Shown here in pieces: positions 1,804 to 60,766 of a stretch of DNA of 64,000 nucleotides. The notes under the pieces are model-generated. The model was not told where the DNA came from. It searched no databases and worked only from the letters and a program-made list of their open reading frames with translations. The DNA is from Nitrospirota bacterium (GTDB taxonomy: Bacteria > Nitrospirota > Nitrospiria > JACRHA01). The stretch lies in contig JACRHA010000056.1 of NCBI GenBank assembly GCA_016234185.1, positions 5,553 to 69,552 of the forward strand, given 5' to 3'. Made by a program: the position numbers and the translations under genes. Each line of letters opens with the position of its first letter. The stretch's first letter is position 1.

Positions 1804-4800
1804 GGATCATGCAGAACCTAACGACCTGAAGACCCCCCCTTCACCTGCAAAAAAGATTTTAATCCTTCTTCTGATCCTTTTCCTCATTGTATCTACAAAT
1901 ATCTTCCTCCATTCCAACCTCCTTTCTGAGATGATACATCCCATTATAGTGACGCAACTCGAGAAGGTCTTCGGAGAGGGCGTTAGGATTGGGAAGGTAA
2001 GTCTTAATCTCCTGCCAACATCTATCGAGATAACGGACTTTTCTCTGATAGGACCGGTTGATCACCATAAGACGCCACTCTTCAGTGCAAAAAAAGTCAG
2101 GGTTAACTTTTCGCCCCTGTCATTAATTACAGAGGTCTTTCTAATAAAAAAGATATCTTTGACAGAACCAGTAGTGACTATATTGGAATATGGGAAGGAT
2201 ATTAGCATTAAATCTCTTCTTAATCCCATGTCTGCTGCTGGAAGCGGCAGCAGGAAGAAGGTAATAGTAATCAGGAGGATTGAAATAAGAGAGGGCGGGG
2301 TGAATATCAAGGCAATGGATGGTGGGTTGGAGGCTCAAATCGCAGGTCTCAATGCAGTGATAGAGCCCGATCTAACTATGCAAAACTATCAGATCTCAGC
2401 CTCTTTGAGGGATATTATGCTGAGTGTATCCGGCGCTACAAGGCGACTTGCCCAGGTAGAGTGGAAGGCCGCCCTCCACCCCGATTATCTTGAGATTAGG
2501 AGATTAGAAGCCGGATCAGGGGATCTGTTGCTCAGCCTTATGGGAACAATCAGCGGTTTCGAGGAACCGAGAATTAACCTGGAGGTAAAGTCTTCAACAG
2601 GGCTTGATGACATCGATAGATTATACCCACCCCTCAAAGGTATTAATGGAAAGGCGGAGGCCGCGGGAGAGATCAGCGGCAAATATCCTGATATCCTCTG
2701 GAGGGGCCGGCTATCTCTGAAGAACCTTTCCTATGAATCTTCGCCGCTTGGAGAGATGAGCTCTGCTGTCTCCCTATCCAGGGATCAGATTATGTTCTCA
2801 AATGCCTCAGCCGATATATTTGGCGGACATCTAACAGGGAATATGACAAGCTCCATTTCCCCAAAAGAAGGGCCGAGATACCACCTGCAACTTATCTTTG
2901 AAAAGATTAAGACTGAGGAGGTAAAGAAAATAATACCCGAAGGATTCCCTGTTCCTGGCAAAACAATAGACGGAAATATATCGTTGCAAGGTATAGGTTT
3001 GAACAGGGAGTCTTTGAGTGGAGATGGCGAAATAAGGATATCCGGCAGGCCCGATGAGATTAAGGACAAGTCAAGCGCCTCCTGGAAGGAGATCCTCATC
3101 TCGCTCCCAGAGGATATTCAGCTTGCATTTACGATATCTGCCGGTGATCTCAATATCAGGACAATGAAGATATCCTCCGCCGGTTCAATTCTTGAGATGA
3201 GTGGACAGGTGTTCAAAAACAACGACATGGATCTCTCAGTCCGTTCAGGTATCAGGGTAATGAAGACCTTTCTGGAAGGGTCAGGTATTACAGATCTGGC
3301 AGGGGACATTGATTTGGCAGGCAAGCTCAGGGGAAATATATCATCCCCGCTCTTTCAGGGAAAGATCGAGATGAATGATGTCCTCATTAAAGGGGTAAGT
3401 ATCAATAGATTTAGTTCCAATATAGTCCTGACAAAAGAAGAGATCGAACTGTCGAATGCCCTGGCTGAAACAGGTGTCGCAACATATAAATTTAATGGAA
3501 AGATTGCCTGGAGGGATGGCATTAATAACCCTTACATAGATCTGGCAGTAAAGATAAACAGCGGATCTCCCGCAGAGATCGCCCGGATGTTCCATAAAGA
3601 GGTCAGGATTAATACACCTATTACCGGAGAGATGTCGGTTAAAGGATATGTCAGGGAGTTGAATCTCCTTGCAAACCTGTCAATAAGGCAGGGAGAGATC
3701 TACGGGCAATCTATCGATTCAGGCAGGGCAGATCTAGCTATCAATAATATGGGAATCAGGATCTCAACGTTTATCCTGAAAAAAAATAAAAGTATACTTA
3801 AGGGGACAGGCTGGATCGGATTTGACGGGGCATTCAAATCTACAATGAAGGCAGAGGCCCTCGGGCTCGAAGACCTTGATATTATTTCAGACAGGATCCC
3901 GAATATAAAAGGAAAGGCCTCCATTGAGTTATCCGGCGCCGGCACATTTACCAAACCGCAGATACTGGGCGGCATCTCTATTATCGGCCTCTCTTATCAG
4001 GGGTCTGATATGGGGGATGCAAGGATCGAGGTATGGACTCAGGCTGAGGATCTGAATTTTAAGGCCAGGATCAATGACCGGCTCACGGCAAAAGGAAAGG
4101 TGGGCCTGAAGGGCAGCCTTCCGGTTGCGGCAGATATCAGTCTTACTGATATGCCGGTTGGTATATTCCTGGACCTTGTTCATCCTGAACTTCCCTCCAG
4201 GGTGTCGGCCGTGACATCAGGGAGGGTTTCAATAAACGGGAACCTCGCCGATCCGAAGTCGATCCATACCGACATTCTTCTTACAAATCTGAATATTGAC
4301 ATATCGGGCTACCAGGTGAGAAACGACAAGAAGATCTCTATTGAAATAAAGGGAGAGGAAGCCAGGATTGTCTCATTTAGTTTACGCGGGGAAGGTACCT
4401 TAATTAATATAAAGGGAGGATCAATTGCCCGGAACGAGCTAAATATCTTTGTAGAGGGTGAAGCTGACCTGAGCCTGCTCAAGCTATTCACAAGGGATAT
4501 CGCTCTTAGCAAAGGGAGGGCTGTCTTTGCCCTGACAGTATCGGATAAATGGGAGGATCCCAAGATCAGGGGAGACCTAAAGGTAATTGGTGGTATAGTA
4601 AGGACCAATATAGTACTGACCCAGTCGATTAATATAACTGCAATGAACTTACTCTTCAATGAACGCCAAATCCTTCTTGAAAAATTTGAAGGCCTTGTGG
4701 GAAGCGGGAACATACATGGTTCGGGAAAGATAGACATCAAGAATATGTCTGTTGCCGGCATAGAGATGATCCTGGAATTTAAGGAAGTAAGACACGCCTT

Positions 4801-5707
4801 GATATCTGACTTTAATTCCATGATCGATGGTACGCTCATCTTTCAGGCAAATAATAAGTCAAGAAGGCTTACCGGGGAGATCGATATCAAGAAGGGTAAG
4901 TACGAGAAACGGATAGATATGAACAGGTGGCTAATCGAGGTCAGGAAGATCACCTCTGCCCAGAGGCCTGCCAAGGCATCAAATGATGTCTCCTTAAATA
5001 TCCATTTTTATGGAAAGGATGGGATATGGATAAATAATAATATTGCCAAGATTCCGCTTGAACTGGATCTGTATCTTAAGGGCTCTGTAAACAGGCCTGT
5101 ATTATTAGGGAGGATAGATGCAAATGATGGGTCTGTCTTTTTCAGAGGGAACGAATTTAAGGTAAAATCAGGCACAGTAGATTTCCTTGATCCGAAGGCA
5201 ACCAAACCGCAGTTTGACTTCAAGATCAACACAAAAGTAAGGACATATAAGATTGATACCAGTCTGGCAGGAACCCTGGATCGTTTTGACCTGCAGCTCT
5301 CATCAAATCCCCCTCTGAGCGAGACTGATATCCTTGCCCTCCTTACAGTAGGAAGGACTTCGACTGAGTTTACTCAGACCCAGAAGAATATAGGGAAGGA
5401 GGCGGCAGCCTCCCTGCTGGTAGAAGAGCTTGTTCAGGAGAAGGTTCAGGGCATAACGGGTGTGGACCGCTTTCAGGTCGACCCATACTATTCAGGAGTT
5501 AAATCGTCATCCGGCCCTAAATTCACAGTAGAAAAGAAACTGCTGGATGACAGGATGTCTGTTACCTATGCCTCTACGCTGGATCCTTCTGTTGAGGAAT
5601 TGATCCAGGTAGAGTATAGGCTTGCAGGCAACATATCTCTGATCGGCACCAGGGATGAAAAGGGGTTGCTTGGGGGGGACATCAGATTCAGATTCGAATT
5701 CAAATAG
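1766..5707 (+). CDS. tamB: TamB-like translocation and assembly module protein (AsmA/DUF490 family)
   Basis: The 1313-aa protein has an N-terminal TM anchor, long beta-rich repeats and a DUF490-like C-terminus ending RFRFEFK. It lies directly upstream of bamA. Confidence 0.7.
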   Translation: MWKKKRNQLSKDEDHAEPNDLKTPPSPAKKILILLLILFLIVSTNIFLHSNLLSEMIHPIIVTQLEKVFGEGVRIGKVSLNLLPTSIEITDFSLIGPVDHHKTPLFSAKKVRVNFSPLSLITEVFLIKKISLTEPVVTILEYGKDISIKSLLNPMSAAGSGSRKKVIVIRRIEIREGGVNIKAMDGGLEAQIAGLNAVIEPDLTMQNYQISASLRDIMLSVSGATRRLAQVEWKAALHPDYLEIRRLEAGSGDLLLSLMGTISGFEEPRINLEVKSSTGLDDIDRLYPPLKGINGKAEAAGEISGKYPDILWRGRLSLKNLSYESSPLGEMSSAVSLSRDQIMFSNASADIFGGHLTGNMTSSISPKEGPRYHLQLIFEKIKTEEVKKIIPEGFPVPGKTIDGNISLQGIGLNRESLSGDGEIRISGRPDEIKDKSSASWKEILISLPEDIQLAFTISAGDLNIRTMKISSAGSILEMSGQVFKNNDMDLSVRSGIRVMKTFLEGSGITDLAGDIDLAGKLRGNISSPLFQGKIEMNDVLIKGVSINRFSSNIVLTKEEIELSNALAETGVATYKFNGKIAWRDGINNPYIDLAVKINSGSPAEIARMFHKEVRINTPITGEMSVKGYVRELNLLANLSIRQGEIYGQSIDSGRADLAINNMGIRISTFILKKNKSILKGTGWIGFDGAFKSTMKAEALGLEDLDIISDRIPNIKGKASIELSGAGTFTKPQILGGISIIGLSYQGSDMGDARIEVWTQAEDLNFKARINDRLTAKGKVGLKGSLPVAADISLTDMPVGIFLDLVHPELPSRVSAVTSGRVSINGNLADPKSIHTDILLTNLNIDISGYQVRNDKKISIEIKGEEARIVSFSLRGEGTLINIKGGSIARNELNIFVEGEADLSLLKLFTRDIALSKGRAVFALTVSDKWEDPKIRGDLKVIGGIVRTNIVLTQSINITAMNLLFNERQILLEKFEGLVGSGNIHGSGKIDIKNMSVAGIEMILEFKEVRHALISDFNSMIDGTLIFQANNKSRRLTGEIDIKKGKYEKRIDMNRWLIEVRKITSAQRPAKASNDVSLNIHFYGKDGIWINNNIAKIPLELDLYLKGSVNRPVLLGRIDANDGSVFFRGNEFKVKSGTVDFLDPKATKPQFDFKINTKVRTYKIDTSLAGTLDRFDLQLSSNPPLSETDILALLTVGRTSTEFTQTQKNIGKEAAASLLVEELVQEKVQGITGVDRFQVDPYYSGVKSSSGPKFTVEKKLLDDRMSVTYASTLDPSVEELIQVEYRLAGNISLIGTRDEKGLLGGDIRFRFEFK

Positions 5708-5730
5708 CCTATTATCAGGATATCTGCCTA

Positions 5731-5970
5731 GCGAACAACGTGAGCGTGTGAGGGGGAGGCTCCACAGGCTTTGCCGGTGGAGGGGGCGACGCTAGCCCCT
5801 GCAAATGAAAGCAGGAGTCAGGAGTCAGGAGAACAGTATTCAGTAGTCAGAATACAGGAGTCAGGAGGAAAGTCTAGAGCCTGAATATTCTAAACAGCGA
5901 GCGAATGCGAGCGTTGAGGGGGAGGCTCCATCCGGCTTTGCCGGTGGAGGGGGCGACGCTAGCCCCTTTA
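5731..5970. repeat. Two copies of the interspersed hairpin repeat (core GAGGGGGAGGCTCC..GCCGGTGGAGGGGGCGACG) separated by the AATGAAAGC-AGGAGTCAGGAGTCAGGAG module
   Basis: Cores sit at about 5745-5800 and 5908-5970. The same about 55-bp core recurs at least 12 more times in the window. Confidence 0.85.
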
Positions 5971-14504: not shown

Positions 14505-14660
14505 AGGTTATACCAATTCGCATTCAACAGGATACCAAGGCGGCGAGGAGGCACGAAGAAGGCTGAGGCTGAGGTTGAGGCTAAGAAGTTCCTAAACCTT
14601 AACCTTGACCTCAACCTGTTTTTTTCCAGGTAGCCGAATGAAGGCAAATTGGTATTAGTT
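14505..14660. repeat. MITE-like composite element with terminal inverted repeats TACCAATTCGCATTC / GAATGAAGGCAAATTGGTA enclosing an aggttgagg / cctcaacct hairpin plus T-run
   Basis: Inverted 25-30 bp ends at 14506-14530 and 14629-14658. The internal hairpin at 14551-14627 is followed by TTTTTTT and probably also terminates ntrX transcription. Confidence 0.4.
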
Positions 14661-40102: not shown

Positions 40103-42133
40103 CTACCAGGATGCGACTTCTGCTGTCCCTATCCGGCCTGCTGCAACCAGACCCTCCTTTTGCCTTGCAGTCTTCTCATGCTGATCAGAATTAATCTTAA
40201 ATCTGCCGACTACCTCCATTAGTTCCCCGCCCATCCTGGCCAGTGTCTGAGAGGCCGACATGACGTTAGCCGCCCCTTCGGCGGTGCTCCTGGAAGCAGT
40301 AGCCACGCCGGATATGCTCTGGACCACCTCGCCCGTCCCTGTTGCCGCCTCCGCCATGTTCCGGCTGATATCTGTAGTTGTTGCTGCCTGCTCCTCTACG
40401 GCCCCGGCGATTGCCGTAGATATCTCGTTAATCTTGCCGACAATCTCTCTTATTTCATCTATGGCCAATACAGCGCCCCTGTTATCAGCCTGGATCGCCT
40501 CGATCTTCCGGCTGATCTCCTCTGTGGCCTTTGCCGTCTCCTTGGCAAGCTCCTTCACCTCGTTTGCCACAACGGCAAAGCCTTTGCCGGCCTCCCCCGC
40601 ACGGGCAGCTTCAATGGTTGCGTTAAGCGCCAGGAGGTTTGTCTGCTGGGCAATAGAAGTTATGACCTTTATTACCTTGCCTATCTCAATACTCGACTCA
40701 TTTAGTTTTGAAATTGTAGTATTGGTAGATTCGGCAACATTAACAGCCTGCGAAGTAATCCTGCCCGCCTCCTGGACATTTTTTGAGATCTCCTTGATGG
40801 TTGCCGTCATCTCCTCTGCCGCTGTTGCAACTGTCTGGACATTTCTGTTGGTCTGTTCTCCTGCCGCCGAGACGCTGCTTGCCTGGCGATTCGTCTCCTC
40901 TGAATTGGCGCTCATCTGCTGACTGGAGGCTGCCAGTCCCTCCGATGTGACATATATCCTTTTGGAGGTGTTTTCAATGCCCGCAAAGGTTTCGCGGAGC
41001 CTTACCACCATGGAACAGAAGGATCGGACAAGAGATCCTATTTCATCGTTCCCCCTGGCCTTAATCTCCACTGTCAGGTCGCCTTCTGATATCCTTTCCA
41101 CCACCCGGACCATCTCATACATCGGTCTGGTAATGCCCCTCATTAAAAAGTAGGTCAGAAAAACCGTAGCCATGAGAGAAACAAGGGTTATTATCATGAA
41201 GAGCATAAGACCAAGATTCGCACCCCTTTTTAATTGATCTGCATTTGCATTTATGTCATTCGAGAGCCTCTCTTCTACCTCTTTTAAGAGATTTATCTTA
41301 CCGGTCATCATTGTAAACCAATAGGCAGAATCAACCCCCAGATTCCCCTGGCTCGCTCTATCTATGGCAATCTTCCTCATCCTTGCGGTCTCATCTATAA
41401 ATTGACCCTGCATCTTATTTTTATAGAATTCCTTCTGCTCCTCTTTAGCAATCGATAAAAACTGATTTAAATAGATATCCTGGGCATTTACAGCGTAGAT
41501 GAATTTATTATATATCCCCTCTTCAAATCTGCCTACACCAAAGGTATTACTCATAGTAGCCCTTTCTACGCCTGCCTTCTCTTTTGACCTCAGGAAACTT
41601 ACATAGGCCAATATCTGGATTGAAAGCCCCGGATTGGCGCTTATCCTGGATATATGGTCTATTACCTTTAAAAAGGAGGCGTTCATATCTGTGTAATAAC
41701 CGATTCCTTCCCCGCCGGAGATATTAAAGGCATTAACTGAGTCCCTGTGCCCCCTTATTCTGTTAAGGTTATTGAGCGCCATTTCCAGGTCATTTTTAAA
41801 CCCGGCATCAAACCTGTTCCTGTTAAAACCCTTCATAAAATCATCCATGGCTTCTATCTTCTTGTCGGTATTGGACCTCTGGGTTCTAAGCTCTTCGGTA
41901 TATTTCGTCCCCTTGCTTCCCATAAATACACCTGTAGCGCCTCTTTCTTTCTGCGATTCATGCACAAACCCGCTTATCTTAACTACAAGGACAGACAGAT
42001 CCCCCAATCTCTCCATCTCGCCTGAAAGCCTCCATATTTCAGCGATCCCGGTTAAGGCAAAATAGAGGAGGGCCAGGATCGGGATAATAACCATCAGGAT
42101 GAGCTTATGCGCTATTTTTATATGCTTAAACAT
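40103..42133 (-). CDS. Methyl-accepting chemotaxis protein with an N-terminal NIT (nitrate/nitrite-sensing) domain and HAMP
   Basis: NIT-like region ([16 protein letters not shown]...), HAMP, and the conserved MCP signalling domain. Confidence 0.8.
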
Positions 42134-44928: not shown

Positions 44929-44995
44929 AAATAAAAGCCAAGGTTGAGGTTAAGGCTAAGGTTAAGGTTTCAGGTTTTCTCAGCCTCAACCTAAA
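44929..44995. repeat. aggttgagg...cctcaacct hairpin repeat (second copy of the family seen at 14551-14627), terminator-like between cheB and cheR
   Basis: AAGGTTGAGGTTAAGGCTAAGG...CTCAGCCTCAACCTAAACCTTAACCTGTTTT. Both copies end in AACCTGTTTT. Confidence 0.4.
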
Positions 44996-46064
44996 CCTTA
45001 ACCTGTTTTCTTGATACGCAGTCATCTATGGCGCTGCTTATCTGATCCAACGGTAATACACAATCCGCAAACCCGCCATTGATTACAGCCGACGGCATCC
45101 CCCAGACCACGCTACTGGCCTGGTCTTGTGCAAAAACCAGGGCACCCTGTTTCTTCATATCCATTACACCCTTATAACCGTCCTGTCCCATCCCTGTCAT
45201 GATGATCCCCAGGGCATTGGGTCCATAGACCTTTGCTACAGAACGGAAGAGTGCATCTACTGCCGGACGGCAGAAGTTCTCCGGGGGTCCCTGGTTTAAG
45301 GAGATCACAGCGCCATCCCCCCTATGCTGCAAGGTCATATGAAAATCTCCAGGGGCAATATAGACCACTCCAGGCTCTGGCTCCACCCCCTCATGCCCTT
45401 CAATAACCCTAAGGTCAGAGATAGTGTTGAGACGCTCTGCAAGGAGCTTTGTAAAGATTGGCGGCATGTGCTGAACTATCATAATAGGAACAGGGAATCC
45501 CTTCGGTAATACCGGAATTAGCCTTGATAAGGCCTCAGGGCCTCCTGTGGATATGCCAATGGCCACAACCCTGGGAACAGAGAGGACAGGGTGCAGGGGG
45601 TAGGGGGTATACCCTGTACCCTGTACCCTGTACCCTACCCCCTGACTAAATTGTTTGATCTTCGGGATCAACTCCGATGCAACACCTTTAAGGATATCTT
45701 TATATCCCTGATGGGTAATGCATGCAGGTTTGGCAATATAGTCATTGGCCCCAAGTGATAGCGCCTCGATAGTCTGTACAGCTCCGCGCTGAGTAAGGGA
45801 GCTGAACATGATCGTCCTGATCTTCGGGCAATTGGCCCGGAGTACGCGGAGCACACCGAATCCATCCATTTCCGGCATCTCGATGTCAAGGATAATAACA
45901 TCCGGGTTTAATTGACTGATACGCTGAATGGCAATAATACCGTTAGATGCGGTTCCAACAACTGCAATCTCAGGGTCTGATGAGAGGGCATCAGAGACTG
46001 CCCGCCTGACTACGGCAGAATCATCAACAATCAGGACTCGGATTGGTTCATTAATTGCAGCCAT
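44991..46064 (-). CDS. cheB: Chemotaxis response regulator protein-glutamate methylesterase CheB
   Basis: REC domain plus the methylesterase catalytic region (GISTGGP, IVQHMP). Confidence 0.9.
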   Translation of the reverse strand: MAAINEPIRVLIVDDSAVVRRAVSDALSSDPEIAVVGTASNGIIAIQRISQLNPDVIILDIEMPEMDGFGVLRVLRANCPKIRTIMFSSLTQRGAVQTIEALSLGANDYIAKPACITHQGYKDILKGVASELIPKIKQFSQGVGYRVQGTGYTPYPLHPVLSVPRVVAIGISTGGPEALSRLIPVLPKGFPVPIMIVQHMPPIFTKLLAERLNTISDLRVIEGHEGVEPEPGVVYIAPGDFHMTLQHRGDGAVISLNQGPPENFCRPAVDALFRSVAKVYGPNALGIIMTGMGQDGYKGVMDMKKQGALVFAQDQASSVVWGMPSAVINGGFADCVLPLDQISSAIDDCVSRKQVKV

Positions 46065-46498: not shown

Positions 46499-48139
46499 TT
46501 AAGCAGCTCTTCTCTGAGAAACCTCATACAGACCCTCCCTTTGCTTGAATGACTTATCGTTGTTATCAGAGTTGATCTTAAACTTGCCCACCACCTCCAT
46601 TAACTCCAAGCCCATTTTGGCAAGGATCTGAGAGGCCGACATGACATTAGCCGCCCCTTCAGCCGTGCCCTTGGAGGCTGTTGCCACCCCGGCAATGCTC
46701 TGAACCACTTCACCTGTGCCTTTGGCTGCCTCCGTCATATTCCGGCTTATCTCATTGGTGGTCACCGCCTGCTCTTCGACTGCCCCTGCGATAGTCATTG
46801 AAATCTCGTTGATCTTGGTAATAATCTGCCCGATCTCCCCGATAGCCGAGACGGCCCCCCTGGTATCTGTCTGGATCGCCTCGATCTTCCGGCTGATCTC
46901 TTCTGTGGCCTTGGCTGTTTCTTTGGCCAGATCCTTTACCTCATTAGCCACCACGGCGAATCCCTTTCCTGCCTCTCCTGCCCTGGCCGCCTCAATGGTT
47001 GCATTGAGGGCAAGGAGGTTTGTCTGCTGGGCAATTGATGTAATAACCTTGATTACCTTCCCGATCTCAGCGCTCGATTCACCAAGCTTTGAGATAATGG
47101 CATTAGTCGATTGCGCAGCCGACACCGCCTGGGTAGTAACACTTGTCGCCTCCTGGACATTTTTCGATATCTCCTTGATTGTAGCCGTCATCTCCTCTGC
47201 CGCAGTGGCAACTGTCTGGACATTCCTGTTTGTCTGCTCGCCTGCGGCTGAGACTGAAGTTACCTGGCGGTTTGTCTCCTCTATGTTAGCTTCGACATGT
47301 TTACTGAATGCAGCCAGCTCTTCAGATGTTGTAGAGATCTGGCTCGAACCATGTTGAATACCGGAGATCATTTCGCGTAGCCCCGCGACCATAGCGGAGA
47401 AGGACCGGCTTAGCGCCCCGATCTCATCATTACCTCCGGCCTTCACCTCAATAGTAAGATCGCCGGCAGCAATCCTTTCAGCGACCGAGGCCAGGTTGCG
47501 CAGCGGGTGAACGATAGCCCTTCCCAAAAGGACCACCAGCGCCGTCCCGAGCAGGATTATTCCGATAGTGATCCAGAGGGTGATACCCTTGAAACTTTTT
47601 GCCAGCCGGCCCAGTCCCTCAATTCCGGTCTTAAAGGTATTGTCCTTACCCTTGGTATATTCATCGAGGCGCTGCCTGAGTTCAGTGGCTGTATTGCTGA
47701 ATTTTCCCGTTTCTTGTTCTGCCATGCCGATATTTTTTCTGGCCATAAGTGTGGCCGCGATCTTCTGACCCAGGTCAAAATATGTTTTATAAAGGGCTTC
47801 AATCTCGGCAAGCTGTTTACTATCCTCCCCTGACAACTTCTTTAGCCGCTCCAGCGCGGCCATAAATCCTGTTCCTATCTCTTTGGCTTTTTCAAGTTTC
47901 ATCTGATCATTAAAACTGATCGCCTCTGTAAACAGCTCGGATATCCTTTTTAAATCTTCTTCCAGCACTACGCCTTCTTTGTATGGGAGGTAAGCCTTCT
48001 CCTGGAGCTGAACTGCAAGAGAGAGCATCCGGACACCCCCTGAATAACTGTAAACGGCCAGCATCAGGAAGACGATCAACATTAAGACATAACTGCCGAT
48101 GATCTTGTGTTGGATTCTTAAGGAATTTATGTTAAGCAT
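46499..48139 (-). CDS. Methyl-accepting chemotaxis protein (HAMP plus MCP signalling domain)
   Basis: Its conserved signalling domain is near-identical to that of the MCP at 40103. Confidence 0.85.
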
Positions 48140-50430: not shown

Positions 50431-52773
50431 CTACACCCTTGCCTCTTCCATCCACCCCGGTTCAACGCCTTCGATCACCTGGTCTATATTGAGCAGGTCG
50501 GTTGTCATCCCCTCAATAACCAAAGATCCGGCTACCCCTGTCTTGCCTGGCGGGGGAGGATGGAGCACCGACTCTGCCTCAACGATATCGAGTATCCTGT
50601 CTACCACCAGCCCGACATTCTTCTTTTTTCCGGAAAATACAATAGTAGGCAGCATCTCCCGGTTTTGGTCAGGGGAATCTATACCAAGGATCCTGTCAAG
50701 CCGGATCAACGGAAGAAGACCCCCACGGTATTGAATTATGTCCCGTCCGGCAGCCTGTTCAACCCTGTTTAGGTAAAATTCCTCCAGTCGGTCAACCAGG
50801 GCCAGAGGGACTGCAAACCGGTCATTCCCTGAGGCAGAAAAGAGGATCAGCGTATGATGTTCAATCCCTGATCCATCTTCCGTACTATCTTCTAATGTTA
50901 ATTTGGTCTCACCAGCCTTAGACTGAAGAAACCCTCCCTCCTTGGCAACCCCCTGTACATCCAGTATAAGGGCCACCCTTCCATCACCCATGATCGTTGC
51001 GCCTGCAAATACTGAAAGCCCTTTTAACTGCCTGCTCAATGGCTTAACTACGATCTCCTCGCTATTGTTTACCGCATCAACCACAAGCCCGAAGGGACGT
51101 TCTCCAGCCTTAAGGACAACTATGCTGGTATTAGATGTTTCTGTAGGGGCACATTGCAATGTGCCCCTACCTTCTTCCAGGCAAAGGAGTCGATTGAGGT
51201 AAAGAATAGGAAGGAGCGTTCCCCGCAACCTATAAAAGCTGGCGTCGTGGATCACTTCGATCCGGCCGCCAGACTCAGGATCTACCCGGACAAGCTCAAG
51301 CAGACTTGCCTGCGGGATCGCAAAGAGCTCCTTTCCTGCCGCAACCATCAGGGCCGGGATTATTGCCAGCGTCAATGGTATCTTAATTCTAAGGCTTGTG
51401 CCCTGCCCAAGCCTGCTTGTCATTTCCACTGTCCCACCTATCTTTTCTATATTTGTCCTGACTACATCCATACCGACACCGCGGCCCGAGACATTTGTTA
51501 CCTTCTCAGCAGTTGACAGCCCCGGCAGAAAGATAAGGTTTAGGGCCTCACGCTCCGACATGCGGGATACAGCCTCAGCAGAGACGAGACCCTTCTCAAT
51601 GGCCTTGCGCTTGACCTTCTCTATATCAATACCATTTCCGTCATCTCCGATCTCTATATTGATCTGGCCTCCTTCGTGGTATGCCTTAAGATTGAGCATC
51701 CCCTTTGGTCCCTTCCCCCTTGCCCTCCTCATATCAGGGGTCTCAATCCCATGATCTACGGAATTCCTGACAATATGTGTCAGGGGGTCTTTAATCGCCT
51801 CTAACAGGGTCTTGTCCAACTCAGTCTCAGCCCCGTCCATGACAAGTTCAACCTCTTTGCCATTTGTCTTGGCAAGGTCCCTCACCAGGCGCGGGAATTT
51901 CTCCCAGACATTCAGAATCGGCTGCATCCTGGTCTTCATTACAGCATCCTGGAGCTCTGTTGTAATCAGATTCATCCGCTGGGCAGTGCCTGCATACACA
52001 GCATTATCCTCTTCCCTTACCCGCTGTAAGAGCTGATTTCGCGCAAGCACAAGCTCACCGACTAAATTCATTAATTTATCGAGGAGGCCGACGTCCACAC
52101 GGATGGAAGATTCCGCGGACACAAGACCTCTATTTTGTGACATAACAGCTTTGCTTTCTTCCTGACTTCTGACTCCTGACGGCTCGACTGAGCTCGCCGA
52201 AGTCTCCTGACTCCCGCTTTCATTAGCAGGGGCTTGCGTCGCCCCCTCCAAAGGCAAAGCCTTTGGAGCCTTCCCCTCAACGCTCGCATCCGCTCGCTGT
52301 TTAGAGGATTCAGCATCCAGGATACCTTTCTCCTTTCTCCTGACTCCTGACGGCTCGACTGAGCTCGCCGAAGTCTCCTGACTCCCGCTTTCATTTGAAA
52401 TAAGCGTCTTCAGCTTCTGTAGTATAGAATTATAATCCTGGGCAGGCTCGGATCCTTTAGACTCTATGTGGGACAGGATTTCCTTTATGGTATCAACCGC
52501 CTCAAGGAGGATTGTAACCCCCTCCGGCGTCACAGGCATCTTTCCGTCCCGCATCATCGAGAGGACATCTTCACCGCCATGGGCAACAGACTCAAGCTTC
52601 GGAAGTCCAAGAAAACCACAAGTTCCCTTAATGGTATGTATAGTGCGAAAGATACTCGCGATAAGGGCTCTGTTCCCTGTCTCCTTTTCAAGTAAAACAA
52701 ACTCCTGATCAAGCCTTCCCAGACCTTCATAACTTTCAACCAGGAATTCCTTCAAGATGCCGTCATCTTCCAT
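50431..52773 (-). CDS. cheA: Chemotaxis histidine kinase CheA, carrying in-frame repeat-element insertions in a linker
   Basis: Hpt (P1), dimerisation, HATPase and CheW-like (P5) domains. The linker contains a duplicated ESGSQETSASSVEPSGVR around a translated repeat core. Confidence 0.9.
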   Translation of the reverse strand: MEDDGILKEFLVESYEGLGRLDQEFVLLEKETGNRALIASIFRTIHTIKGTCGFLGLPKLESVAHGGEDVLSMMRDGKMPVTPEGVTILLEAVDTIKEILSHIESKGSEPAQDYNSILQKLKTLISNESGSQETSASSVEPSGVRRKEKGILDAESSKQRADASVEGKAPKALPLEGATQAPANESGSQETSASSVEPSGVRSQEESKAVMSQNRGLVSAESSIRVDVGLLDKLMNLVGELVLARNQLLQRVREEDNAVYAGTAQRMNLITTELQDAVMKTRMQPILNVWEKFPRLVRDLAKTNGKEVELVMDGAETELDKTLLEAIKDPLTHIVRNSVDHGIETPDMRRARGKGPKGMLNLKAYHEGGQINIEIGDDGNGIDIEKVKRKAIEKGLVSAEAVSRMSEREALNLIFLPGLSTAEKVTNVSGRGVGMDVVRTNIEKIGGTVEMTSRLGQGTSLRIKIPLTLAIIPALMVAAGKELFAIPQASLLELVRVDPESGGRIEVIHDASFYRLRGTLLPILYLNRLLCLEEGRGTLQCAPTETSNTSIVVLKAGERPFGLVVDAVNNSEEIVVKPLSRQLKGLSVFAGATIMGDGRVALILDVQGVAKEGGFLQSKAGETKLTLEDSTEDGSGIEHHTLILFSASGNDRFAVPLALVDRLEEFYLNRVEQAAGRDIIQYRGGLLPLIRLDRILGIDSPDQNREMLPTIVFSGKKKNVGLVVDRILDIVEAESVLHPPPPGKTGVAGSLVIEGMTTDLLNIDQVIEGVEPGWMEEARV
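52161..52395. repeat. Hairpin repeat core flanked by two direct copies of the approximately 58-bp module CTGACTCCTGACGGCTCGACTGAGCTCGCCGAAGTCTCCTGACTCCCGCTTTCATT, all inside cheA
   Basis: The core at 52228-52300 has arms CTCCAAAGGC/GCCTTTGGAG instead of CTCCACCGGC/GCCGGATGGAG. The substitutions are compensatory and preserve the stem. Confidence 0.85.
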
Positions 52774-53012
52774 TTAAACCTCCCCATGAGAACTTAATTA
52801 TCTTATCGGAAAATCAAGGAAAATCTTTAGCTTCCGGGTCCTTATGAAATGGGTGTGCGACATAAATGTTGATATGTTTAACAGATTCATCGTAGGGGCA
52901 GACCTATGTGTCTGCCCTGGAAATGTCTCCGTCGATCCCAAAGAGGGCGAACACAGAGGTTCGCCCCTACATAAAGGGATCTTTATGCTATCCTCTTGGG
53001 GCAACTACTTTT

Positions 53013-53717
53013 TTATGGAATCCTATCCACACTTACAACTACTATCTCTACCCGGCGGTTCTTTGCCCTGCCCTCCGGCGAATCATTGGTATCGATCGGT
53101 CTGAATTCGCCATACCCGGCCACAGAAAAACGTTGAGGATCCATTGCATGGCGGTCGACAAAATACCTTACAATACTCATTGCCCTGCCAGTTGACAGTT
53201 CCCAGTTGGATGGGAAGGCCGGTGTCTTGATAGGTATATTATCGGTATGCCCCTCGACCTGGACGGGGTTCGGAAGGGCGGCTATAAGATCTGCTATCTT
53301 ATCAAGTTTTTCGCTGAACACCGGGAGAATCTCTGCCTGACCCGTTTCAAAGGCAAGACTGTTCTCGATCCTTATCACTGTACCCCGCCGGTCTTTAATC
53401 AGACTGATCTGCCCGGAAGGGTCCATTGTCCTGACCTCCTCCTCCATCTTCCTGTATTTAAAAAAAAGTTTGAGGCCGGTATCAAACATGGCAGTCCCGG
53501 ATTGTTTAGAGGTCAGTCTTATATTTGAAGAGGAGAGAGCGATAACGGGGTGAAATGCCTCATTCACGGAATCGGAAACTGCACGATACTTACCCTCATG
53601 GACTGATGATGTAGAATACATCACCACAAAGAATGCAAAGAGGAGCGTGATAAAATCGGCATAGGAGATCAGCCAGCGCTCTTGATTTTCATGTTCTTCT
53701 TCCTTTTTTTTCCGCAT
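53013..53717 (-). CDS. motB: Flagellar motor stator protein MotB (OmpA-like C-terminus)
   Basis: WLISYADFITLLFAFFVVMY plug/TM region and a C-terminal OmpA-like peptidoglycan-binding domain. Confidence 0.85.
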   Translation of the reverse strand: MRKKKEEEHENQERWLISYADFITLLFAFFVVMYSTSSVHEGKYRAVSDSVNEAFHPVIALSSSNIRLTSKQSGTAMFDTGLKLFFKYRKMEEEVRTMDPSGQISLIKDRRGTVIRIENSLAFETGQAEILPVFSEKLDKIADLIAALPNPVQVEGHTDNIPIKTPAFPSNWELSTGRAMSIVRYFVDRHAMDPQRFSVAGYGEFRPIDTNDSPEGRAKNRRVEIVVVSVDRIP

Positions 53718-53730
53718 CTTTCCTCCTTTT

Positions 53731-54174
53731 TTAAGGGGCTTGCGTCGCCCCCTCCACCGGCAAAGCCGGATGGAGCCTCCCCCTCAACGCTCGCTTTGCT
53801 CGCTTTAAGGGGCTTGCGTCGCCCCCTCGCCTATCTCAGGGGAGCGACCGTCCCCCTCCACCGGCAAAGCCGGATGGAGCGCTTCGGCTGAGCTCAGCGT
53901 CGAAGCCCTCCCCCTCCCTACGCTCGACTCCGCTCGCTGTTATAAATTCAGGGGAGCGACCGTCCCCCTCCACCGGCAAAGCCGAAGCGAGCATCCGGCT
54001 TGGCCGGTGCAAGCGCGGGGTGTAGGGGCATCGGAGGAGCAACTGCACCGCACGGGCCCCCACAGATGATCGTCGCCTCCCCCTCAACGCGCGCCCTGCC
54101 CGCTGTTTAGAAGATTCAGAATCCAGACTTTCCTCCTGCACCCTGACCCCTGCACCCTGCTTTCATCAGGGTAT
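53731..54174. repeat. Cluster of about four tandem or variant copies of the hairpin repeat between motB and motA
   Basis: AGGGGCTTGCGTCGCCCCCTCCACCGGCAAAGCCGGATGGAGCCTCCCCCTCAACGCTCGC plus GGGGAGCGACCGTCCCCCTCCACCGGCAAAGCCGGATGGAGC variants. Ends with a GGGTATCTAC tail. Confidence 0.85.
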
Positions 54175-54942
54175 CTACTTTTTGGGTCTCTTCTTCTGTG
54201 CCTCTGTCAGGAAGCCTTCCAGTTTTTCCTGGATCATCCGCGGGTTATCCCCTGCAGCAATGGACATTATCCCTTCAATAATCAGCTCACGGCTGATCCC
54301 TTCCATCCGGTTCCTCATCTTCAGCTTTCCTGCGATCGGGAGGAAGATCAGGTTTGCCGTTAAGACACCATATACCGTGGCAACAAAGGCTGTAGCGATC
54401 CCGCTTCCCAGCTTTGTCGGATCTGCAAGGTTCTCCATCACATGGATCAGCCCCATTACAGCGCCAAGGATCCCGAATGTCGGACAATAACCGCCGGCGG
54501 CCTCAAATAATTTTGCCGCCATTGCATAATGCTCCTCTCCAAAGGAGAGTTCCACCTCGAGTATCTCGCGGATCAGCTTTGGCTCGGTCCCATCCATCAA
54601 AAGCTGTAATCCCTTCTTTAAAAAAGGGTCCTTTATCTCCTTAATCTTCGACTCAAGGGCCAGGATCCCCTGCTTCCGGACAACATTGGCATATTCCACA
54701 ATCTTTTCTATGAAGGCGACTGCATTATTATTTGGCGCCTTGACGGCCTCCAGCCCTAACTTCATCGCCTCAAGGAACTTAGGAAGTGTAAATTGAACCA
54801 TCACCGCACCCATTGTTCCCCCTAATACGATAATAGCAGCGGTAAATTGGAGGATTGAGTGGACACTCCCCCCTTCCAAGGCCTGTCCCCCAACAAGTGC
54901 GCCCAGCCCAACAACCACACCGATGACCGTAAGGATATCCAT
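54175..54942 (-). CDS. motA: Flagellar motor stator protein MotA
   Basis: MotA/TolQ/ExbB proton-channel family, four TM helices. Confidence 0.85.
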   Translation of the reverse strand: MDILTVIGVVVGLGALVGGQALEGGSVHSILQFTAAIIVLGGTMGAVMVQFTLPKFLEAMKLGLEAVKAPNNNAVAFIEKIVEYANVVRKQGILALESKIKEIKDPFLKKGLQLLMDGTEPKLIREILEVELSFGEEHYAMAAKLFEAAGGYCPTFGILGAVMGLIHVMENLADPTKLGSGIATAFVATVYGVLTANLIFLPIAGKLKMRNRMEGISRELIIEGIMSIAAGDNPRMIQEKLEGFLTEAQKKRPKK

Positions 54943-54967
54943 AGATCAATCAAACCTGTCTATTTCC

Positions 54968-55125
54968 AGGGGCTTGCGTCGCCCCCTCCACCGGCAAAGC
55001 CGGATGGAGCCTCCCCCTCAACGCTCGACTCCGCTCGCTGGGTTAACACCCACTTTCAGGAGCTTGCGTCGCCCCCTCCCTGCCTGCCGACAGGCAGGGC
55101 TAGGTAGATACCCGATGGTATCTAC
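54968..55125. repeat. Hairpin repeat copy plus a variant copy with palindromes CCCTGCCTGCCGACAGGCAGGG and GTAGATACCCGATGGTATCTAC
   Basis: Sequence identity to the repeat family. Confidence 0.8.
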
Positions 55126-55226
55126 TTTTCTCTATCTCCTATCGGCAAATTTTAAGCTTATCTTTAGTGCTTCCAGGATAGATAAATAAGGTACAGGTAC
55201 GGTTTGAGACATCATATTATATTAAT

Positions 55227-55254
55227 TTGACAAGGGATCATCTTCAGATATAAT
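55227..55254 (+). promoter_or_regulatory. Sigma70-like promoter TTGACA-N16-TATAAT upstream of bioB
   Basis: TTGACA at 55227-55232 and TATAAT at 55249-55254. The bioB ATG at 55266 leaves a very short leader. Confidence 0.35.
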
Positions 55255-55265
55255 CTAATAATCCC

Positions 55266-56270
55266 ATGGATGTCATATTAAACGATATTATTGATAAACT
55301 TGAAGGGGTTGGGTCCCTATCAAAGGATGAGGCCTTGTACCTTGTCAGCCTCGATGATATCAGTCTCATCTCTTCCCTTGCCGAAAAGGCAAGGAGAAGA
55401 TATAAGGGCAACCTTGCCGATCTCTGCTCTGTAATAAGCGCCAAATCCGGTTCATGTCCGGAAGATTGTGCCTTTTGCGCCCAGTCGGTCCATTACCAGA
55501 CCGGGATAATGGAGTATCCATTGATCCGGGTAGATAAGATCGTCAAGGCCGCCGCTGATGCAAAAAAAAATGGCGCAAGGAGGTTCTGTATATCAACCAG
55601 CGGCAGGGGGACCGGGAAGGATGATGAGATTTCAAGTATATGTGAGGCGATAAAAAAAATAAGGAATGAGGTTTCAATCTCGCCCTGCGCAACCCTCGGT
55701 TTAATGTCTTCTGACCATCTAAGGGCCTTAAAAGAGGCCGGATTAAACAGATACCATCATAACCTTGAGACATCGGAAGGCTATTACCAAAAGATATGCA
55801 CGACCCACTCTTTTTCTGAGAGGGTGGAGATGGTAAAGAAAGTTAAGGAGTCAGGGCTCTCCGCATGTGTTGGGGGGATATTGGGGATTGGAGAATCTAT
55901 GGAGGATAGGGCCGATCTTGCTGTCGCTATCAGGGACCTCGATCCCGATTCTGTGCCCATAAATTTCCTGATGCCGATTATAGGTACCCCGCTTGAAGGT
56001 ACAGCCGGACTTGGACACGATGAGGCATTAAGGTCTATTGCGCTATTTAGGTTCATTATGCCTTCAAAAGAGATAAGGGTCTGCGGCGGCAGGGTCTCTG
56101 CCCTCGGTGAATCCCACAGACTGATATTCAACTTTGGGGCTGACGGCATGATGGTCGGAAACTATCTCACCAGGTCCGGCGTCGATCCCAAAGAAGATCT
56201 GAGGATGCTCAATGATCTCAGCCTTGGTATTAGAGAGATAGATGTTTCCGGGCGAGATATCCAGGCTTAA
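55266..56270 (+). CDS. bioB: Biotin synthase
   Basis: Radical SAM CPEDCAFC motif and the auxiliary-cluster cysteines. Confidence 0.9.
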   Translation: MDVILNDIIDKLEGVGSLSKDEALYLVSLDDISLISSLAEKARRRYKGNLADLCSVISAKSGSCPEDCAFCAQSVHYQTGIMEYPLIRVDKIVKAAADAKKNGARRFCISTSGRGTGKDDEISSICEAIKKIRNEVSISPCATLGLMSSDHLRALKEAGLNRYHHNLETSEGYYQKICTTHSFSERVEMVKKVKESGLSACVGGILGIGESMEDRADLAVAIRDLDPDSVPINFLMPIIGTPLEGTAGLGHDEALRSIALFRFIMPSKEIRVCGGRVSALGESHRLIFNFGADGMMVGNYLTRSGVDPKEDLRMLNDLSLGIREIDVSGRDIQA

Positions 56271-57480: not shown

Positions 57481-59002
<1,522 letters not shown>

Positions 59003-60550: not shown

Positions 60551-60766
60551 CTATCTCAGGGGCTTGCGTCGCCCCCTCCACCGGCAAAGCCGGATGGAGC
60601 CTCCCCCTCAACGCTCGCATCCGCTCGCTGTTTAAAAGATTCGGAATCCAGACCTTCCTCCTGACTCCTGACTCCCGCTTTCATTAGGGGCTTGCGTCGC
60701 CCCTACAACTCAGCGCTCGCCTTGCTCGCTAGGTAGATAGCCACTGGCTTGCCCGTGGCTATCTAC
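60551..60766. repeat. Hairpin repeat copy, AATGAAAGCGGGAGTCAGGAGTCAGGAG module, second partial core, and GTAGATAGCCACTGGCTTGCCCGTGGCTATCTAC palindrome
   Basis: Sequence identity to the family. Reverse orientation. Confidence 0.85.

Follow-up and report, generated by a model that had tools for sequence, protein, structure and literature searches.

The CheA kinase encoded in a 64,000-nucleotide stretch of a Nitrospirota metagenome-assembled genome (MAG) (GCA_016234185.1, contig JACRHA010000056.1, positions 5,553 to 69,552; hereafter the window) carries, in its interdomain linker, about 79 residues encoded by copies of an interspersed palindromic repeat that is found mostly between genes. We consider it probable that a selfish mosaic repeat, similar to REP (repetitive extragenic palindromic) sequences or to the Rickettsia palindromic elements (RPEs), is translated here as a slice of three modules (B-A-B') and is tolerated in the disordered tether of CheA. 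Loci outside the window are cited below by number (L001 and so on).

The cheA gene (50431-52773, minus strand) is an intact open reading frame (ORF) of 780 amino acids with no frameshift or stop that would make it a pseudogene. Its product is 100% identical to NCBI MBI5746057.1, annotated as CheA from a Nitrospirota MAG, and cheA orthologues fall in a range of 58-100% identity. Pfam domains follow one another in the order expected of CheA, namely Hpt (P1, residues 6-97), H-kinase_dim (P3, 222-281), HATPase_c (P4, 329-468), and two CheW-like (P5) stretches, and no P2 domain was detected in a Pfam search of the 780-residue protein. The gene lies in a conserved motA-motB-cheA-cheW-mcp neighborhood. 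The whole repeat-derived insert (52160-52395, minus strand) corresponds to residues 127-205 (NESGSQETSASSVEPSGVRRKEKGILDAESSKQRADASVEGKAPKALPLEGATQAPANESGSQETSASSVEPSGVRSQE) and sits between the Hpt and dimerization domains, so that its placement in the CheA linker by an earlier, sequence-only reading of this DNA holds. That reading had also reported a peptide occurring twice around a translated repeat core, and this too is borne out: NESGSQETSASSVEPSGVR is found at residues 127-145 and again at 184-202, encoded by two 65-nt direct repeats (52331-52395 and 52160-52224) that are 95% identical, lie 171 nt (57 codons) apart, and bracket a core of 72 nt. The linker thus reads ...LKTLIS-NESGSQETSASSVEPSGVR-RKEKGILDAESSKQRADASVEGKAPKALPLEGATQAPA-NESGSQETSASSVEPSGVR-SQEESKAVMSQNRGLVSAESSIRVD, with ...SSKQRADASVEGKAPKALPLEGATQAPA as the translated segment between the two copies. 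The inserted peptide consists of 80% disorder-promoting residues with a mean hydropathy of -0.99, and the insert has a G+C content of 57% vs. 50% in the remainder of cheA.

Read in the sense of the gene (all on the minus strand), the insert opens with a first copy of module B (52300-52395), which comprises AATGAAAGCGGG, GAGTCAG heptamers, and then ...CTGGATGCTGAATCCTCTAAA, includes the direct-repeat arm at 52331-52395, and has nested within its heptamer array a 24-nt mini-hairpin, ACTTCGGCGAGCTCAGTCGAGCCG (52350-52373), translated as TSASSVEP. The repeat core, module A (72 nt, 52228-52299), follows with CAGCGAGCGGATGCGAGCGTTGAGGGGAAGG, a central hairpin, and GGGGGCGACGCAAGCCCCT, together encoding QRADASVEGKAPKALPLEGATQAP. 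Its central hairpin (52246-52268) has a perfect 10-bp stem, CTCCAAAGGC/GCCTTTGGAG, with a 3-nt loop, a 21-nt stem variant lacking a bulge, while its 3' hairpin (52229-52245) reads GGGGC-GACGCAA-GCCCC and represents helix 4, which is paired in 99.8% of the alignment cells across the family. A 3-nt spacer, GCT (Ala183, 52225-52227), joins the core to the second B module, and an intergenic copy has GCA at the same junction (5805-5807). Module B', a partial second copy equal to the other direct-repeat arm (52160-52224), contains a second 24-nt mini-hairpin at 52179-52202. The insert is followed by a linker tail, ...SKAVMSQNRGLVSAESS (52111-52159), which leads to the conserved SSIRVD start of P3 and has a K/RGL..AES motif common to the orthologues. 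The tail matches no repeat copy, and nor do the linker of the orthologue at L003 or the first 55 nt of that at L001; these segments are therefore treated as native. For translation of this region, the diagnostic predicted peptides are ADASVEGK, ALPLEGATQAPANESGSQETSASSVEPSGVR, and GILDAESSK.

The core belongs to a sizeable repeat family. A covariance model (R1) that combines sequence with three helices over 87 positions, seeded with eight copies from the window including the one in cheA, matched 11 sites in the window and 132 across the 82 sources searched. The window copies begin at 5723, 5889, 27324, 56264, and 58370 on the plus strand and at 52220, 53726, 53830, 54960, 60550, and 60678 on the minus strand. 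The cheA copy (52220-52305) matched all 87 model positions with 100.9 bits (E = 7e-23), a score that is partly circular because this copy is among the eight seeds. Independently of the model, blastn aligned the cheA core at 88-92% identity over 61-79 nt to six intergenic copies in the window, and at 87% over 122 nt to a seventh (60557-60675), with E-values across the seven from 1e-10 to 2e-24. These matches uphold the earlier proposal that the segment is an in-frame copy of the intergenic repeat. When one genome per species was scanned for the pattern, at least 79 stretches were found, most of them in several Nitrospirota MAGs; among the matches listed were genomes with the closest cheA orthologues, a few MAGs labeled Deltaproteobacteria or Pseudomonadota, and dozens of contigs with copies in each of the CAZYNY, CAYZUL, and CAZOFJ assemblies. 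Apart from one chance miRNA hit, no Rfam family matched the whole window at gathering thresholds or positions 52000-55300 at E <= 1, and the literature searched, with queries that omitted the element's sequence and host lineage names, held no description of this family.

The module that flanks the core in cheA is likewise a component of the family. It consists of AATGAAAGC followed by GGAGTCA heptamers, and its signature in intergenic copies is AATGAAAGCRGGAGTCAGGAG(TCAGGAG)n...GGAAAGTCTGGATTCTGAATCTTCTAAA. At eight intergenic loci in three genomes it lies directly upstream of a core and always in the same orientation, an arrangement also present in cheA and in a DnaJ gene at L071, and it is frequently contiguous with the 3' hairpin of the core before it (...GCAAGCCCCTnnAATGAAAGC), just as cheA shows at 52213-52230. 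The family therefore forms mosaics of the A-B-A-B type, of which cheA holds a B-A-B' slice. The sequence-only reading had described the doubled peptide as a tandem duplication of a flanking module. In so far as this implies duplicated host sequence, or a duplication made by the insertion, it is not supported, as module B is a regular part of the mosaic, and the doubling is better seen as the periodicity of the array. An origin of the 65-nt direct repeats by target-site duplication was considered and rejected, because module B belongs to the family at other loci. The 24-nt mini-hairpin is missing from the first B module of the orthologue at L002 and present in an unrelated heptamer array (L083, 6766-6791). 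The heptamers themselves vary, with about eight copies of (CAGGAGT)n at 5812-5867 and a CAGGGTG/CAGGGGT version at 54130-54160, and each change of heptamer copy number shifts the frame by one.

The linkers of related CheA proteins form a series from which the history of the insert might be read. Only four proteins at least 77% identical to the window CheA were found among 5.8 billion, and a search of the JGI metagenomes for more cheA alleles, with the Hpt domain as query, returned nothing closer than 73%. The orthologues at L003 (78% nucleotide identity) and L004 (both 79-80% at the amino acid level) have Lys/Pro/Ser-rich linkers of 114 and 110 amino acids, respectively, with no match to the repeat. 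The L001 orthologue (91% nucleotide identity) has a linker of 63 amino acids, in which a single B module stands between a short native start (GGISTPASV..., cf. GGPNIGSS... in L003) and a native end. The window linker, with B-A-B' and a native end, has 120 amino acids, and so does that of L002 (91% nucleotide identity), in which a B module without the mini-hairpin, A, and B' are followed by a further palindromic heptamer module that extends as far as the conserved ESSIRVD. In more distant orthologues, the linkers are of the ordinary Pro/Ala/Ser kind and vary widely in length. All linkers of the series are open and in frame, and relatives differ in their modules by multiples of three bases throughout. 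By parsimony, a linker without repeats is the ancestral state; the window, L001, and L002 belong to the lineage that acquired the repeats, with module-by-module turnover that kept the frame thereafter. Thus, the comparison of CheA among relatives, which the sequence-only reading had proposed as a check, shows that the repeat-derived sequence is not ancestral linker, and it bears out the suggestion that the element contributes to the evolution of the linker.

The window and GCA_964648095.1, which were assembled independently, have the same insert with the same junctions and frame, and this speaks against an assembly artifact. Around the insert, cheA is 96-100% identical between the window and L002; identity across the insert itself is 100%, and mid-gene it is 72-85%. 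A constraint on the insert at the nucleotide level, which the 100% identity might have indicated, was rejected, as the flanking cheA sequence is also 96-99% identical. Along the whole gene, identity between the window and L002 is mosaic, with 96-100% in the first 240 and last 200 codons and 72-85% around codons 440-580, suggesting that recombination between diverged lineages may have taken place within cheA.

The frame is kept open as follows. In the canonical intergenic unit, one sense frame meets TAA or TGA at the A-to-B junction. With the 21-nt stem, which is one base shorter, the frame shifts so that the second half of the core is read as ...EGATQAP and continues without a stop into NESG..., and the first of the two cores in the L071 gene, which encodes a DnaJ/TPR protein, shows the same shorter-stem solution. 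The number of heptamers (7 nt each) and small indels do the remaining frame adjustment. In the cheA insert, two of three frames are open in the sense direction and none in the antisense direction; therefore, an open frame by itself is not strong evidence, and it is the continuity with the conserved P3-P5 that counts. All Pfam domains downstream of the insert are in frame and highly conserved. Judged from this continuity, the insert is most likely translated as about 79 hydrophilic, disorder-prone residues that serve as a tether. A 107-amino-acid arginine-rich ORF (MKAGVRRLRRAQSS..., 52071-52394, minus strand) is open across the whole insert in the +1 frame; it starts at an ATG inside AATGAAAGC of module B that is constant in the module, and it is probably meaningless.

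A second site in cheA also carries palindromes. A perfect 28-nt palindrome, GTAGGGGCACATTGCAATGTGCCCCTAC, lies at 51143-51170 (residues ~535-544), where the first CheW-like domain has a variable loop, and encodes RGTLQCAPT; the L002 and L004 orthologues have another hairpin element there (...LTPPSPSLPKRGIRGGVGDRG..., DNA CCCCCTCTTTGCCAAAGAGGGGG). This site is a second hot spot for hairpin repeats in the gene.

The central hairpin of the core is conserved in structure across the family. Its consensus is CTCCA(T)CCGGC-TTT-GCCGGTGGAG, with the arms also written CTCCATCCGGC-TTT-GCCGG-TGGAG, and the cheA hairpin, CTCCAAAGGC-TTT-GCCTTTGGAG, differs from it in that two C-G pairs are exchanged for A-T pairs and the bulged base is lost. 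In an alignment of 126 distinct copies, pairing holds in 94% of the cells vs. 32-58% in slid controls, and pairs changed on both sides amount to 87 cells vs. 14.6 in shuffles, with 0 of 500 shuffles reaching the observed value; this alignment was fitted to the model and is thus biased toward structure. The raw stem variants show the same covariation (e.g., TCATCGGGC/GCCCGATGA and TCCAGCAGC/GCTGCTGGA). These paired two-sided changes, together with the raw variants, indicate that structural constraint acts on this hairpin across the family. The unpaired stretches that adjoin the covarying stems are also conserved across phyla. Compensatory stem mutations had been claimed for the cheA copy in particular; the variant is real, but it is not specific to cheA. 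This 21-nt stem is a minority variant in the family, and an identical one occurs in three copies of sister genomes (L008, L015, and L031), none of which lies within a long ORF. The variant therefore need not have arisen inside cheA and is probably a subfamily trait that the cheA copy inherited. As RNA, the sense strand of the insert folds with -99.9 kcal/mol and is more stable than shuffles (z = -3.9). A terminator and promoter scan of 51900-55300 found nothing on the cheA strand within the insert.

Copies of the repeat mostly follow the direction of transcription. Of the clusters that lie between unidirectional genes, 59 run with transcription and 11 against it (p = 4e-9), and for clusters inside ORFs the numbers are nine and one. 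Since genes on both strands of the window carry co-oriented copies, the bias follows transcription and not the replication arm. It fits an RNA-level role or counter-selection of the opposite orientation, and the family gives the impression of a structured element that is transcribed, more than of passive junk.

No mobilizing transposase linked to the family was found by tblastn in 693 kb of loci, with IS608 TnpA and Escherichia coli RAYT (REP-associated tyrosine transposase) as queries. One RAYT-like gene is present in these loci (L020, 1339-2298, minus strand), with 60 bits to PF01797 and 75.4 bits to NF047646, below the cut-off of 80, and it is flanked by perfect 23-nt inverted repeats (1332-1354 and 2324-2346) unrelated to the core family. 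The gene lies 2 kb from a core copy.

CheA is not the only protein with such an insert. Ten of the 116 copy clusters lie inside long ORFs and the other 106 do not. In the window, bioD (58205-59002, plus strand) contains a core in frame (58370-58458), so that the product exceeds E. coli BioD by about 31 residues; the surplus falls between the two parts of the protein aligned to 1dts (its residues 1-52 and 67-176). The copy is also found in the L002 orthologue (L002, 560-648). The arginine decarboxylase gene speA at L038 (2963-5056, minus strand; core 4770-4852) has an in-frame insert of 27 amino acids in a variable loop. An orthologue with 95% identity (P0121/L164) lacks the insert, as do all the others in the alignment, and the insertion is therefore recent. 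The speA host has its named relatives among the Deltaproteobacteria and Myxococcota, and the repeat family thus spans at least two phyla, a spread that does not depend on binning because the speA evidence lies on a single contig. Further in-frame copies are in a ppx/gppA gene (L058) and a gene for an NAD-dependent epimerase (L051), and one forms a C-terminal extension of a peptidase U32 (L059). At L071 (6148-7842, plus strand), an A-B-A slice separates DUF4388 from the J domain in a DUF4388-DnaJ-TPR protein. Pfam confirmed all of these host genes. The inserted peptides all have 74-82% disorder-promoting residues and negative hydropathy, and their sites, as judged from sequence, are the interdomain linker in CheA, a position between domains in the DnaJ protein, one between aligned segments in BioD, and a variable loop in SpeA. 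Together with the orthologue series, the copies in bioD, speA, ppx, and the DnaJ protein and epimerase genes lend further weight to the idea that the element takes part in the evolution of linkers.

Taken in sequence, the events behind the cheA insert were probably as follows. A repeat that is normally intergenic and co-oriented with transcription would have come to sit in the sense orientation and in a permissive frame in the tether region of cheA, having either landed there or been rebuilt by recombination among repeat copies, in the lineage of this organism and its two closest known relatives. The original Pro/Ala/Ser/Lys-rich linker would have been mostly replaced, with an insert length that keeps P3-P5 in frame, and later gains, losses, and conversions of modules would have reshaped the tether, always in multiples of three bases and with the keeping of the frame as the sole constraint. 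As a flexible connector without sequence conservation, the tether would tolerate the repeat. For the spread of the family, we favor hairpin-dependent single-strand transposition or recombination, as in REP elements and arrays of bacterial interspersed mosaic elements (BIMEs), and we infer neutrality, i.e., tolerance rather than benefit.

Several points weigh against this account of a selfish, tolerated repeat. The original linker is gone and not just interrupted, and despite their different modules, the linkers of the window and L002 have precisely the same length of 120 amino acids; together, these two points might point to some selection for length instead of pure neutrality. The insert shared by the window and L002 represents one event and counts once, because the cheA sequence around it is 96-100% identical, so that its persistence says little about selection. 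Translation, in turn, is deduced solely from the intact, conserved frame. In an AlphaFold2 prediction from a 14-sequence alignment, residues 129-239 have no secondary structure and a predicted local distance difference test (pLDDT) of 22-29, but the model is poor throughout (mean pLDDT 45.9, with the P5 domains also low), and the low values in the linker are therefore only weak evidence for disorder. As for mobility, the mobilizing enzyme of the family was not found in the loci searched, and when speA with the insert (L038) was compared with two genes that lack it (L164 and L165), no clear target-site duplication or sharp ends could be made out in this variable loop.

Other explanations give the modules a more active part. 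One of them, which we regard as doubtful, is that a structured, transcription-oriented element found across phyla, with sense frames compatible with coding, routinely seeds disordered segments in proteins, and that the CheA tether was rebuilt from its modules; if this were true, changes in heptamer copies could adjust frame and length, or even act as an on/off switch. It is unlikely that the modules were selected for the length or charge of the P1-P3 tether and thereby tune the kinetics of a kinase that lacks P2. The replacement of the native linker, rather than its simple lengthening, would agree with such exaptation, as would the multiples of three bases in every module difference and the equal 120-residue linkers of the window and L002, in which an extra 8-residue mini-hairpin stands against a further module at the tail (compared with 114 residues in L003 and 110 in L004). 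However, L001 is presumably functional with 63 residues, linkers of distant orthologues vary widely, two equal lengths may easily be a coincidence, and the divergence between the window and L002 is too small for a test of selection. In addition, the same peptide modules occur in unrelated proteins and loops, as a selfish element in a permissive frame predicts. A role at the RNA level, in which hairpins in the cheA message would cause ribosome pausing, processing, or nuclease protection and the peptide would be a by-product, is quite improbable in our view. The stable fold of the sense RNA, the strong co-orientation with transcription, and the conserved unpaired stretches beside covarying stems, as in structured RNAs, are what this explanation has in its favor, but Rfam gave no family match even at the permissive threshold, the insert has no terminator-like site on the gene strand, nothing links such an effect to cheA specifically, and both the orientation bias and the covariation are also expected of REP-type DNA elements.

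There remain explanations that deny the insertion or reverse it. Repeats commonly cause chimeric contigs in metagenome assemblies, and with two of the three sense frames open, a recently inactivated cheA could keep its frame by chance; nevertheless, a repeat-driven misassembly or a decaying gene is very improbable, given that L002, from an independent assembly of another project, has the same junctions and frame, that the downstream Pfam domains are in frame and highly conserved, and that the gene keeps its place in the conserved chemotaxis neighborhood. Hardly credible is the opposite direction, by which the linker would be ancestral to cheA and the intergenic copies derived from it. Beyond the shared sequence nothing speaks for it, whereas more than 120 copies are known in many genomes of at least two phyla, L003, L004, and all more distant cheA orthologues are without the repeat, and the cheA copy carries a minority stem variant. 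A selfish palindromic mosaic translated in a tolerant tether is the explanation that we favor.

The present in-frame repeats are best compared with the RPEs (Ogata et al. 2000, 2002, cited in PMC3184786 and PMC5896051). In both cases, an interspersed palindromic repeat of ~100-150 nt is found between genes and, in frame, in several unrelated intact genes, where it adds a hydrophilic peptide. The hosts here, however, are free-living groundwater organisms of the Nitrospirota and of Myxococcota- or Deltaproteobacteria-like groups, whereas Rickettsia is obligately intracellular; moreover, this family is a mosaic of modules (core, heptamer connector, and mini-hairpins) in arrays, and the array in cheA replaced nearly the whole interdomain linker and varies by module among close relatives. 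The family appears to work like the RPEs but is not assignable to them, because the hosts differ; a relationship in sequence is not expected.

The likeness to REP sequences and BIMEs is of another kind, consisting of G+C-rich imperfect palindromes with a consensus and many copies, mostly extragenic near gene ends and co-oriented with transcription, which form mosaics with other short motifs and occasionally lie wholly within ORFs. REPs inside genes have been described with GTAG/CGTC tags (PMC3733652), and co-orientation with transcription is typical of REP-type elements (PMC3733652; PMC12306157). Among the defining features of a REP, we found palindromic stem-loops (a central hairpin of 9-10 bp and a 5-bp GGGGC/GCCCC hairpin) and a common consensus in many copies (11 in 64 kb), but not the short unit, which is 14-40 nt in E. 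coli (PMC12306157): the hairpins here are 17-23 nt long within a conserved unit of ~75-87 nt (three helices), to which a connector of ~60 nt is added. The repeat unit thus resembles a BIME-like mosaic more than a single REP. GTAG...CTAC palindromes occur in some neighboring modules (55104-55125 and 60727-60760), and a truncated core-derived copy (60678-60737, 36.9 bits) reads GTAGGGGCGACGC, compared with the usual core GGAGGGGGCGACGC, which has no consistent GTAG/CGTC tag. Unlike in a REPtron (PMC3733652), no RAYT gene flanked by copies of the family was present in the 693 kb of loci. REP families are usually specific to a species or genus, whereas this one spans phyla.

Miniature transposable elements with inverted repeats (MITEs) may also fuse with or insert into ORFs, as do QMITE1/2 in Coxiella (PMC5896051; see also PMC3184786 and PMC10969869), and they resemble the present family in being small non-autonomous repeats that extend or interrupt ORFs in frame and contribute peptide segments. 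No clear target-site duplication was seen at the one filled site compared with empty ones (speA, variable loop). The family differs from MITEs in that it has no terminal inverted repeats, as the core in cheA is flanked by direct repeats and the core ends (CAGCGAGCG... and ...GCAAGCCCCT) are not complementary. Because of this lack of terminal inverted repeats, it is not a MITE. Finally, the P1-P2 and P1-P3 tethers of CheA are generally flexible and of low complexity and vary in length and sequence among orthologues, as here, but in this case the source of the variation can be named, namely copies of an interspersed repeat rather than ordinary low-complexity drift.

Elsewhere in the window, a repeat of another type, in which AGGCTG/AGGTTA hexamers form a long imperfect palindrome, is present at 14560-14617 and 44947-45004, the two copies being 78% complementary. 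In addition, a 300-nt segment is duplicated with 76% identity (40148-40447 and 46529-46828) inside minus-strand ORFs of 676 and 546 amino acids, which are probably paralogous genes in the chemotaxis cluster.

Overall, cheA in this lineage offers a clean, datable example of an interspersed repeat becoming protein, with a kinase tether that has zero, one, three, or four modules depending on the relative; it is of moderate interest for the near-complete replacement of the tether, the stepwise series of relatives, and the spread across phyla. Palindromic repeats in genes, familiar above all from Rickettsia, are thereby extended to uncultured, free-living Nitrospirota and to at least one further phylum. 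Inserts of this kind make proteins seem more novel than they are and can mislead gene callers and homology searches. They also mark positions that tolerate 25-80 extra residues, such as the tether of CheA and loops of BioD, SpeA, and Ppx.

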